Shown here piece after piece: positions 55,032-57,586 of a DNA stretch of 64,000 bases; position 1 is the first letter of the stretch; every line of letters starts with the position of its first letter. The DNA is taken from sequence record PQ666540. The stretch is one strand, 5' to 3'. Below the pieces are notes generated by a model. That model ran no database searches. It was not told the origin of the DNA and was given only the letters and a program-made list of their open reading frames with translations. This stretch comes from Shigella phage sb2. The translations under genes were made by a program, and so were the position numbers.

Positions 55032-56000
55032 TTATTTCAGAAGAGTAACCTCAGCGATTTCTTCCCAACCGTTTTTGTCGGTCATAATAAAGTCAGCAAG
55101 ATAAAGAGCAGTACGCAGTGAAACATTGCGCAAACGGTTAACATTAACTTTCATCCATGATAATGCTTTATAAGTTTCTTCATCAGAAAGACCGCGCTTT
55201 TGCATCATGTCAGTTGAAAGAATAACATCTTCAACCCTGACCATAATTTCTTCATTAGTGTGAACACCCAAATCCAAATAAACCGAGCGGGACACTAATG
55301 CTTGTAAATGTGGAGCAAGTTTAGTACCACGGTCTAATTCGCGGTCAATGTCAACGTTTGTGATAAAAACAATCGTTCCTTTAAATTCAAACTCACGCTC
55401 AATGCCTTTTTCTTCTAAGTAAGAAGACGCAGTGCTCCAGCAGACTTTACGGGTCTCTCCGGTGTCCAGAGCGGCTTTTAGAAGATTAAGAATATCCATA
55501 TCAGAGAAAACATCCACATCATCAATCAAAAGGACAGAATTCTCTTCACGATTATTCCAAAGCTGCTCATAAAGACCAATACCAGAGATTTTACCATTAA
55601 TGCTTTTATATTCAATGTATCCAATATCATTTGCTTTATTCAAAGCTTTATCTAAAGAATACGTTTTACCAATACCTGCTGCGCCAGAGATAATCAATGA
55701 ACGAATATTTCCATTAATAATACCATTCGTCATCATTCCCATAACATTAAATCTTTTATTAATGCGGGTTTTCATATCTTCATACGATTCTTTAACTTCT
55801 TCAACTTTTACACCATCATATGAAATATCTGATTTGTAAACCCAAACACCGCGACGTTTACCGTCAATTTCAACAAAAACTTTACCATCTCCTTGCGCAT
55901 CTACCGGAGCATTATCTGGGAACCATTCGCCTAAGAGCTCAAAAGTTCCAGAGATTTCTTTACCAAAGTAGATACCCTTATTGATAGTTACAGTTTTCAT
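55032..56000 (-). CDS. P-loop AAA+ type ATPase
   Basis: Walker A GAAGIGKT, Walker B LLIDDVD, sensor-like FITN; start MKTVTINKG. Confidence 0.6.
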   Translation of the reverse strand: MKTVTINKGIYFGKEISGTFELLGEWFPDNAPVDAQGDGKVFVEIDGKRRGVWVYKSDISYDGVKVEEVKESYEDMKTRINKRFNVMGMMTNGIINGNIRSLIISGAAGIGKTYSLDKALNKANDIGYIEYKSINGKISGIGLYEQLWNNREENSVLLIDDVDVFSDMDILNLLKAALDTGETRKVCWSTASSYLEEKGIEREFEFKGTIVFITNVDIDRELDRGTKLAPHLQALVSRSVYLDLGVHTNEEIMVRVEDVILSTDMMQKRGLSDEETYKALSWMKVNVNRLRNVSLRTALYLADFIMTDKNGWEEIAEVTLLK

Positions 56001-56034
56001 TTTATTCTCCAAATCCGTATCAGTTGGTAGTTGT

Positions 56035-56064
56035 ATAGTACCATAAAGCTTTATGCTTGTAAAC
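56035..56064 (-). promoter_or_regulatory. T4-type early promoter
   Basis: GTTTAC (56059-56064), TGg + TACTAT (56035-56043), UP-like tract. Confidence 0.65.
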
Positions 56065-56087
56065 CGTTTTGTGAAAAAATTTTGAAA

Positions 56088-56112
56088 TAAAAAAGGGAGC
56101 CCGAAGGCTCCC
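56088..56112 (-). terminator. rho-independent terminator
   Basis: gggagcc-UUCG-ggctccc followed by U6 on minus strand, right after nucleotidyltransferase stop. Confidence 0.7.
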
Positions 56113-56114
56113 TA

Positions 56115-57128
56115 TCATTTATAATAACTTCGGTGGTTTTCAAGATAAACCCTCTCAAGGAAGTCATCCCAAAAACCCATGTCTACTTTTTGCTGCATAC
56201 CGTTCTTAGAAGCTTCAATGGATGCTGCTTCTACTTGATCGACCACATCTTCCAAAAACTCTTGAACAGTTTTAAATGGATGTTTACCCAACTTCACGTC
56301 GAGAATAAATGGAGCGTCTTGAAGTGGATAGACTAAGTCACCAGTTTTGTAAATTTCCAATAGTTGGAGTCCACCGCGGCAAGCATGACTTAGAGCTTTC
56401 CAGTCAATGCCCTCATTCGCTTCAGCTTTACGAGCGCGTTCGCCGTATTCAGCATCTAATTTGTTCAGTGACTGCTTAAGCTCAATAAGAGAAAGCGTTG
56501 TCTGATATTTACGACCCAACACGGTGTAGAACGTTTGTGGGCCTGTTTTCTCATGATTATGGAATACCCATTCACAGAATTCGTTCTCTGGAAGACGATG
56601 CTTAATATCTTCAACTTTAGTTCGACGCTGCTTAATGGAACCGCCTTCTTGATAATCAACCCACTGATCGGGGATTTGATTAACTACTTTCAATACATCA
56701 CGCAATGCGGCCAAACGAGAACCCTTGACGCCGTATTTAGAAGCTTGCTTGCGAACATATCCTAAATAGGATTTCATGTTAGTCGTATAAAAACGAGAAC
56801 GATTGTCTTGAATAAACTTCCATACATCAGGCAAATCAGATTTAACTACCAGTTCAGGTGGAGTGTGAAGCATATCCAATGCTACAGTTTCACCATCTGC
56901 TGCTAATTTAAAGAAATATTTAAGACTGTATAGTTCATGGTCAATATCATCTTTAGTGTTTTTAGATGATGTATTGTTAGTGTTTTTGCTCATATGCTCT
57001 TTAACATTTCCGATAAGAATATCGCGAGCAGGAGGAACAAAGATTTCTTTAAAATCTACATCAGATTCTGGAGTAGAAGTTCCATAAAGATGACTACCAA
57101 AATAGCTTTTCATTACTGTTTTCATCAT
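56115..57128 (-). CDS. predicted nucleotidyltransferase (Pol-beta superfamily)
   Basis: N-terminal GSHLYGTSTPESDVD motif (GS...D.D). Confidence 0.6.
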   Translation of the reverse strand: MMKTVMKSYFGSHLYGTSTPESDVDFKEIFVPPARDILIGNVKEHMSKNTNNTSSKNTKDDIDHELYSLKYFFKLAADGETVALDMLHTPPELVVKSDLPDVWKFIQDNRSRFYTTNMKSYLGYVRKQASKYGVKGSRLAALRDVLKVVNQIPDQWVDYQEGGSIKQRRTKVEDIKHRLPENEFCEWVFHNHEKTGPQTFYTVLGRKYQTTLSLIELKQSLNKLDAEYGERARKAEANEGIDWKALSHACRGGLQLLEIYKTGDLVYPLQDAPFILDVKLGKHPFKTVQEFLEDVVDQVEAASIEASKNGMQQKVDMGFWDDFLERVYLENHRSYYK

Positions 57129-57586
57129 TCAGCCTTATATTCAATAACAGGACATACTTTAGCTTTACGAGCTTTTAAAAATTCGACGATAATAGATTTC
57201 TTGGGTTGAATAGGAGGTAAACCTTTATACGCCCTATCAATATTTTCTACATGTAAAGCATAATCCTTTTTCCATTTATAATCTTTATATTTTTCATGCA
57301 GTTGTGCAGGAATAACAAATGAACCAATAATAAGTAAAACAAGCAAAATGGCAAGTATAAATGCTGATGGAATAAGAGTCCATAGACTGCTAAAAATAAT
57401 CCAACGCTGTAAACTTTCTGCGCAGATAATAGTTAGACCTGCGAGTATAGTACATCCGAAAAAAGAAACGAAAAATGTAGGGATAACAATAGACCAAAAG
57501 TATGCACATAATGTCTTAGGTCGTTTCCATTCGTCGTTAAACATTTTGAATAATTTATAATGCCAAGAGTTTTCATTAATAATCAT
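57125..57586 (-). CDS. multi-pass membrane protein
   Basis: 153 aa, 3-4 hydrophobic segments; ATGA overlap with nucleotidyltransferase. Confidence 0.5.
   Translation of the reverse strand: MIINENSWHYKLFKMFNDEWKRPKTLCAYFWSIVIPTFFVSFFGCTILAGLTIICAESLQRWIIFSSLWTLIPSAFILAILLVLLIIGSFVIPAQLHEKYKDYKWKKDYALHVENIDRAYKGLPPIQPKKSIIVEFLKARKAKVCPVIEYKAE

Follow-up and report, generated by a model that had tools for sequence, protein, structure and literature searches.

The classic example of a phage that counters a host defence through RNA repair is the Pnk/Rnl1 pathway with which T4 opposes PrrC. The enzymes of the RlaP family take their name, as the original proposal is cited, from the linkage of their genes to RNA ligase genes (Burroughs and Aravind 2016), and they have been predicted to refill nucleotides lost from RNA ends ahead of ligation (PMC7824862). 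In a December 2025 preprint, two Pseudomonas RlaPs were reported to add 1-2 nucleoside monophosphates (NMP) to RNA 3'-OH ends, working best with Mn2+ and being inactive on DNA or protein in vitro; they favoured the 5'-half end of a cleaved transfer RNA (tRNA) mimic over the acceptor end, and partly restored the aminoacylation of a repaired tRNA missing one anticodon-loop nucleotide (PMC12776372). The same work lists a 'T4NrdC.11' as an RlaP member, in its cluster 5, and gives its function there as unknown (PMC12776372). Here we have analysed positions 55032-57586 of a 64,000-nt stretch of Shigella phage sb2 (record PQ666540; hereafter the window), where such a gene lies between one for a membrane protein and one for an AAA+ ATPase, every gene in this part being on the minus strand. 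We consider it fairly probable that the three are accessory early genes of the nrdC-mobD hyperplastic region, inherited separately and not forming one system, and that the middle one, the orthologue of T4 nrdC.11, encodes an RlaP enzyme.

The window belongs by its sequence to Tequatrovirus, and the 2.5-kb stretch is 97-98% identical at the DNA level to hundreds of genomes of this genus. Phage pSs-1, a 97% identical relative, carries the same three-gene locus at the window's own coordinates. The two enzymes are named nrdC.11 ('nucleotidyltransferase') and nrdC.10 in the T4 RefSeq record, and the translated window genes are 98% (NrdC.11) and 99% (NrdC.10) identical to those of T4.

NrdC.11 (56115-57128, minus strand; 337 residues) was assigned from its open reading frame (ORF), its Pfam match and its identity to the T4 protein. 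Its residues 11-25, GSHLYGTSTPESDVD, carry the Pol-beta motif G11-S12 ... D23-x-D25, and the protein matches both Pfam PF10127 (RlaP, 'RNA repair pathway DNA polymerase beta family'), with 43.7 bits against a gathering cut-off of 23 (E = 3.5e-11), and PHROG 388 ('nucleotidyltransferase'). A library-wide HMMER search with NrdC.11 returned 3,431 clusters (50% identity) at E <= 1e-3. As subfamily set we used 40 diverse full-length representatives, 34-54% identical to the window protein, and the RlaP profile matched all 40 of them (best E = 2.2e-19). Across this set G11, S12, D23 and D25 are invariant, D61, D63 and D85 reach 90% conservation or more, and two C-terminal motifs, KQAxKYGVKGSRL and NEGIDWKAxSHAxR, are common to the representatives. 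The catalytic carboxylates are those of the RlaPs PfRlaP and PaRlaP, although NrdC.11 falls in sequence cluster 5 and the assayed Pseudomonas enzymes in cluster 1a. The Pol-beta signature G[GS]...DxD is also shared with CD-NTases/cGAS, CCA-adding enzymes and the MenT-type nucleotidyltransferase toxins, whereas the C-terminal domain with the two motifs appears RlaP-specific. Profile scans of NrdC.11 with Pfam and PADLOC models gave no CD-NTase/SMODS, CCA-adding or MenT-type match, and no solved RlaP was found among the PDB sequences with either the single sequence or the 40-sequence profile. On this evidence from sequence, NrdC.11 is an RlaP-family protein with intact catalytic residues and a predicted RNA nucleotidyltransferase; its gene is present in about 1,500 sequenced phages.

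The genomic context of the cellular relatives ties this subfamily to RNA repair. When the subfamily profile was run on one genome per bacterial or archaeal species, 156 relatives were obtained, and 80 cellular loci were kept whose proteins are 32-54% identical to NrdC.11 over the full length; the neighbouring ORFs were clustered and the recurrent ones confirmed by Pfam. RtcB (E = 2.2e-132), the kinase/phosphatase/ligase domains of Pnkp (1.2e-168), Hen1 (2.9e-112) and Ro60/TROVE came out as recurrent neighbours, and at least one of these four lies within 8 kb in 16 of the 80 loci, or in 10 of the 43 with at least 3 kb on both sides. In Asticcacaulis (L162 4074-8981, and also L141 and L158; L numbers denote the loci surveyed here) the genes for Hen1, Pnkp and RlaP abut on one strand, and a Nitrosospira contig (L124 3558-16629) holds a Ro60-RtcB-RlaP-Hen1-Pnkp cluster. 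The T4-type RlaP subfamily is therefore tied to both ligase systems, Hen1-Pnkp and Ro60-RtcB. As the window NrdC.11 aligns end to end with the RlaPs of these Hen1-Pnkp and RtcB operons (35-39% identity, all motifs in common), the link to RNA-repair neighbourhoods extends beyond the assayed cluster to the T4-type subfamily itself, and finding this subfamily in cellular Hen1-Pnkp and Ro60-RtcB operons is what the present analysis adds. No homologue of NrdC.10 or of the membrane protein was found among the neighbours of the 80 cellular RlaP loci.

The linkage among the three phage genes was followed in two surveys, one based on NrdC.11 (33 loci) and one on NrdC.10 (43 viral loci with 10-kb flanks). 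NrdC.10 lies within 6 kb of NrdC.11 in 23 of the 33 loci, all 23 in T4-like phages. Seen from NrdC.10, an RlaP gene is nearby in only nine of the 43, and these are the nine closest relatives (at least 66% identity), none of the 34 more distant loci having one. Aeromonas, Vibrio, jumbo and Roseobacter phages have one of the two genes without the other nearby. Co-inheritance of the three genes beyond close relatives is thus not seen among the loci surveyed. A second addition of this analysis is that the machine of NrdC.11 probably includes neither the ATPase nor the membrane protein; their side-by-side position would reflect shared ancestry, not a nucleotide-signalling system.

NrdC.11 and NrdC.10 also appear to be transcribed separately. 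Directly after the NrdC.11 stop codon lies a predicted intrinsic terminator (56084-56113, minus strand), called from its fold energy and identical in T4, whose hairpin (56113-56094) has an 8-bp stem with six G-C pairs and a UUCG loop and is followed by a T run; it folds with -17.7 kcal/mol (z = -3.8), and none of 200 shuffled sequences folded as well. A T4-type early promoter is predicted 30 bases beyond the hairpin (56063-56035, minus strand) from its consensus and repeat count. Its sequence is TTTACA-17-TACTAT, with an extended TG and, upstream, an A/T-rich region. It belongs to a 45-nt repeat (family D1) of which 8 kb contain three copies, and six occurrences of its core, TTTTTCACAAANNNGTTTAC, were counted in the window where 0.09 would be expected. 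Such a combination is known from T4-like phages as the PeSL (promoter-early stem-loop) cassette, in which a hairpin is joined to a strong early promoter and which lies in spacers within hyperplastic regions (Arbiol et al. 2010; Comeau et al. 2014; PMC2839356, PMC4122927), for which the promoter consensus in the T4/PST group is TTTACW-N17-TAYWAT (PMC4122927). The window spacer has the same stem-loop, A/T-rich region and consensus promoter, is intergenic and coincides with insertions and deletions (indels); of the five published arrangements it shows the one in which the stem-loop precedes the -35 box. We regard the spacer as a PeSL-type regulatory cassette made of a predicted promoter and a predicted terminator.

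This spacer (56001-56114) is base-for-base the same in T4. Its length is 100 nt in the window and in T4 and 550-2300 nt in other relatives (L003-L030), and phage BW-1 (L001 6970-7705) has two extra small ORFs here between duplicated copies of the cassette. The PeSL model predicts indels at such cassettes, in agreement with the spacer being an indel hot spot among the relatives, and we propose that the cassette would insulate transcription units and act as a recombination hot spot. The nearest early-type promoter upstream of the membrane protein gene is at 59140-59112, and no minus-strand terminator was found between it and 56113, so the membrane protein gene and nrdC.11 are probably the last two in a series of about five genes. 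The unit that follows is predicted to consist of NrdC.10 and NrdC.9 and to extend as far as the promoter at 54624-54596. The promoters at 59140-59112 and 54624-54596 (minus strand) are both of the early type, and a second cassette (59986-59911, minus strand) consists of a UUCG-loop hairpin (59986-59969) followed by the 45-nt promoter repeat.

The third gene (57125-57586, minus strand; phrog_944), identified from the ORF list, hydropathy and PHROG, encodes 153 residues with two long hydrophobic stretches (residues ~25-59 and ~62-98). Its N-terminus carries a net charge of +2 and its basic C-terminal tail one of +6; with both termini positive, the protein would fit an N-in/C-in hairpin. It matches PHROG 944 ('membrane protein', E = 1.2e-50) and no Pfam family. 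A marginal match to the PADLOC model PDC-M39A (E = 0.002) was taken as noise. Homologues were found in 925 phage records, all T4-like and from enterobacterial hosts plus a few others, and they form 67 protein clusters. The gene evolves fast, as relatives share 26-51% identity where NrdC.11 holds 64-84% and NrdC.10 71-79%, and shortened alleles exist in T2 (135 residues) and in other phages (99-116 residues). T4 and locus L005 have an intact NrdC.11 and no membrane protein gene; in T4 the HNH homing endonuclease mobD replaces it together with an adjacent y05I-family paralogue (57589-58110), a difference that looks like an endonuclease-associated gene replacement. The membrane protein gene thus appears dispensable for NrdC.11, being absent in T4 and shortened in T2 and others, and within our joint reading its product is, with fair probability, a small, fast-evolving, dispensable early inner-membrane protein. 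Upstream of it the window has two tandem y05I-family paralogues (57589-58110 and 58117-58671, minus strand; PF24449 plus PF24448, 'putative transcription factor'), of which T4 keeps one only (mobD.1), mobD taking the place of the window's second paralogue and of the membrane protein gene.

The stop codon of the membrane protein gene (TGA, 57127-57125) and the start codon of NrdC.11 (ATG, 57128-57126) form an ATGA overlap (57125-57128, minus strand) that is read directly from the sequence; the RefSeq and T4 annotators begin NrdC.11 at the next ATG, which leaves a 1-nt TGATG overlap. In 26 of the 33 T4-like loci the membrane protein gene lies upstream of NrdC.11, as it does in a distant metagenomic relative with an ORF of 94 residues between the two. 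Several T4-like phages of Klebsiella, Serratia and Enterobacter (L016-L023 and L028, ~5450-6004) have a soluble ORF of 136-185 residues wedged between the two genes. This ORF overlaps NrdC.11 by an identical 4-nt ATGA, and a mobD-like endonuclease does likewise in other phages. Since unrelated upstream ORFs have the same ATGA, the overlap would reflect the compact gene layout of T4 and not a dedicated pair. A two-gene operon of membrane protein and nucleotidyltransferase was considered and rejected, the two being the tail of a longer early unit with a generic overlap.

NrdC.10 (55032-56000, minus strand; 322 residues from ATG) is a phage-specific AAA+ ATPase recognized from its motifs and its model. 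The ORF list begins it at the TTG at 56012 (326 residues, 55032-56012). The ATG at 56000 is preceded by GGAG and is also used by the BW-1 annotators, and it is most likely the true start. The protein matches PHROG 1250 (unknown function) with E = 1.3e-166; its T4 counterpart (phrog_1250) is 99-100% identical, in the same position and with the same promoter and terminator sequence. Matches to two clamp-loader PHROG families and to AAA-type Pfam models are weak, the Pfam AAA score of 23.5 bits being below the cut-off of 27. Its homologues were found only in phages or phage-like sequences (about 1,300 phage genomes), with 55-79% identity across phages of Escherichia, Klebsiella, Acinetobacter, Aeromonas and Vibrio. 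In an alignment of 30 homologues the Walker A (GAAGIGKT), Walker B (LLIDDVD) and sensor 1 (FITN) motifs, an SRS at the arginine-finger position and an SLRTAL with the sensor-2 arginine are invariant or nearly so. Structure prediction had been put forward in the preliminary description as a check, and with AlphaFold2 it served for NrdC.10 (pLDDT 90.2) and gave a poor model of NrdC.11, taken up below. In the NrdC.10 model the first ~70 residues form a five-stranded beta domain, which is followed by an AAA+ core, with an insert of ~30 residues ahead of sensor 1, and by a helical lid, and we are confident that the predicted structure is that of an AAA+ protein with an alpha-beta-alpha core and a helical lid. 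The nearest known kinds would be MoxR-type AAA+ ATPases (NorQ, CbbQ) and other AAA+ proteins that have an insert ahead of sensor 1, NrdC.10 itself being of unassigned clade. More distant homologues (L072-L083) have 500-630 residues, with N-terminal extensions instead of the small beta domain.

No recurrent neighbour was found for the distant NrdC.10 homologues. The gene lies between clamp loader/RegA/dUTPase and helicase/RNase H genes in Vibrio phage K444 (L034 5989-7002). In a KVP40-like contig (L052 9989-10993) it has NrdAB on one side and topoisomerase II on the other, and in RDJL Phi 1 (L040 18802-19833) it is flanked by genes for DNA polymerase A and an exonuclease. These DNA-metabolism neighbours in three unrelated phage types may offer a weak lead that points away from RNA repair. 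NrdC.10 is probably an ATP-driven remodeller or loader that works in early infection with a nucleic-acid or a protein complex as its target, and this highly conserved, phage-only protein may carry out an unrecognised early function; we found no functional paper on nrdC.10 in the literature.

The preliminary description had read these genes as a coupled membrane protein and nucleotidyltransferase followed by a separately promoted ATPase, had stated that none has a known role and had hinted at nucleotide signalling. Its calls of a multi-transmembrane protein, a Pol-beta nucleotidyltransferase and an AAA+ ATPase were borne out by hydropathy, by PF10127 and by the Walker motifs, respectively, and the ATGA overlap, the strong terminator and the early promoter do exist, at the positions it gave or close to them. 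The claim about roles does not hold for the nucleotidyltransferase, which is T4 NrdC.11, an RlaP, two Pseudomonas members of the family having been assayed (PMC12776372). The hint would make the nucleotidyltransferase and the ATPase, together with the membrane protein, a nucleotide-signalling or signal-sponging anti-defence module comparable to the counter-systems of CBASS, Thoeris or retrons. Pol-beta nucleotidyltransferases do include cGAS and the CD-NTases, the genes are adjacent and, by their predicted promoters, expressed early, and their order is kept in many T4-like phages. However, the enzyme is an RlaP and not a CD-NTase, with no PADLOC or SMODS-type match, and RlaPs act in vitro on RNA, not on proteins or genomic DNA (PMC12776372). 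Nor do the two enzymes form the recurring combination that had been supposed, since they occur together in nine of the 43 NrdC.10 loci, with no RlaP within 10 kb in the 34 most distant, and no homologue of NrdC.10 or of the membrane protein accompanies the 80 cellular RlaPs; T4 itself does without the membrane protein gene. We regard such a module as very unlikely, with hardly any chance of being correct, while a counter-defence flavour for the nucleotidyltransferase alone is plausible. A cooperation restricted to the T4-like enterobacterial phages has a small chance: in that case NrdC.10 would assist NrdC.11 in this lineage, perhaps as an ATP-driven chaperone presenting the broken tRNA or removing the nuclease. 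The two are neighbours in 23 of the 33 T4-like loci and in all nine NrdC.10 loci with at least 66% identity, and both are transcribed early, but the strong terminator splits them into separate units, the spacer of 100-2300 nt that parts them is a hot spot for insertions, one occurs without the other nearby in Aeromonas, Vibrio, jumbo and Roseobacter phages, and in other phages NrdC.10 sits among DNA-metabolism genes. The coupling noted in the preliminary description is real as an overlap, but the genes it joins are the end of a run of about five and not a two-gene unit. A functional pair, in which the membrane protein would anchor or regulate NrdC.11 and so explain the translational coupling, has the ATGA and the conserved upstream position (26 of 33 T4-like loci and the metagenomic relative) in its favour; the intact NrdC.11 of T4 and L005 without that gene, the shortened alleles of T2 and other phages, the ORFs often wedged between with the same overlap, the lower identity of the membrane protein (26-51% against 64-84%) and its absence from all 80 cellular RlaP loci leave this only a slight chance.

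Taking NrdC.11 as an RlaP acting apart from its two neighbours, a role in tRNA repair during infection would be consistent with the enzymes that these phages encode. No ligase gene was found adjoining NrdC.11 in the phage loci, whereas cellular RlaPs occur in RtcB and Pnkp/Hen1 operons; in the relative pSs-1 the genes for polynucleotide kinase and RNA ligase 1 lie in another part of the genome. In the proposed sequence of events, the T4 polynucleotide kinase/phosphatase would first strip the 2',3'-cyclic phosphate to leave a 3'-OH end, NrdC.11 would restore nucleotides on that end of the nuclease-trimmed tRNA, and RNA ligase 1 would then reseal the anticodon loop. Because an RlaP product ends in 3'-OH, it would suit a 5'-phosphate ligase such as Rnl1. 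As its most likely role we infer, with about even odds, that during infection NrdC.11 extends the trimmed 3' ends of tRNA and thereby lets Pnk and Rnl1 make the tRNA functional again. The more specific idea, that NrdC.11 is the missing third enzyme of T4 tRNA repair and re-adds the nucleotide or nucleotides cut out by wobble-excising nucleases such as RloC, is put forward tentatively. RloC excises the wobble nucleotide, a lesion that its discoverers proposed in 2008 to defeat T4 repair (PMC2610378). If the idea is true, T4-like phages would resist a defence thought proof against repair, a phage RlaP refilling the wobble base would be a further round of the arms race between RloC and T4, and a function would be gained for a gene that about 1,500 sequenced phages carry. 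The nrdC.11-mobD.3 stretch can be deleted from T4 (PMC9825161), which would fit an accessory counter-defence gene. It is also possible, though unlikely, that NrdC.11 acts on RNA 3' ends to other purposes, such as repair of the 3'-CCA of toxin-damaged tRNA or a tailing of host or phage RNAs that alters their stability. RlaPs label full-length tRNA and species of ribosomal RNA size and accept all four nucleoside triphosphates (NTPs) (PMC12776372), phage nrdC.11 is not linked to ligase genes and most cellular homologues stand alone. Yet the Pseudomonas enzymes prefer the 5'-half end of the cleaved-tRNA mimic to the acceptor end, and their addition stops at 1-2 nucleotides, a poor fit to tailing (PMC12776372), while the subfamily is enriched beside ligase, kinase-phosphatase and Ro60 genes.

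Several observations weigh against the preferred account, of NrdC.11 as an RlaP repairing tRNA independently of its neighbours. Addition to RNA 3'-OH ends has been measured for the two Pseudomonas enzymes only, and the low NTP selectivity of RlaPs in vitro would make the exact refill of a specific wobble base inefficient (PMC12776372). The Pfam RlaP alignment spans residues 7-135 of NrdC.11 only, and the AlphaFold2 model of the protein is poor (pLDDT 54), having been built on a shallow alignment of 120 homologues, each of them 77% identical or more. No RNA-repair gene could be recognized beside about three quarters of the cellular homologues, and in pSs-1 the genes for Pnk (pseT) and Rnl1 (rnlA) are ~80 kb from nrdC.11. 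Finally, T4-like phages of enterobacteria and of Acinetobacter share the gene order, which leaves a small chance for a cooperation specific to the lineage.

All three genes are long-catalogued ORFs of T4-like phages, and the finding is in that sense an ordinary one. The AAA and COG3541 nucleotidyltransferase matches of these ORFs had already been noted in a comparative paper of 2006 (PMC1524935), and both the RlaP assignment of NrdC.11 and the idea that it takes part in tRNA repair have been put forward before (Burroughs and Aravind 2016, as cited; PMC7824862; PMC12776372). NCBIfam gave no match for any of the three proteins, and an Rfam scan of 52-60 kb of the window gave none either. In public GenBank and UniRef records NrdC.10 and NrdC.11 often carry wrong labels ('thioredoxin', 'HNH homing endonuclease' or 'processivity clamp loader'), and ORFs nearby are called 'molybdopterin-guanine dinucleotide biosynthesis protein MobD' or 'RNA polymerase ADP-ribosylase'; the wrong labels have evidently been propagated from the gene names nrdC.x and mobD.x.

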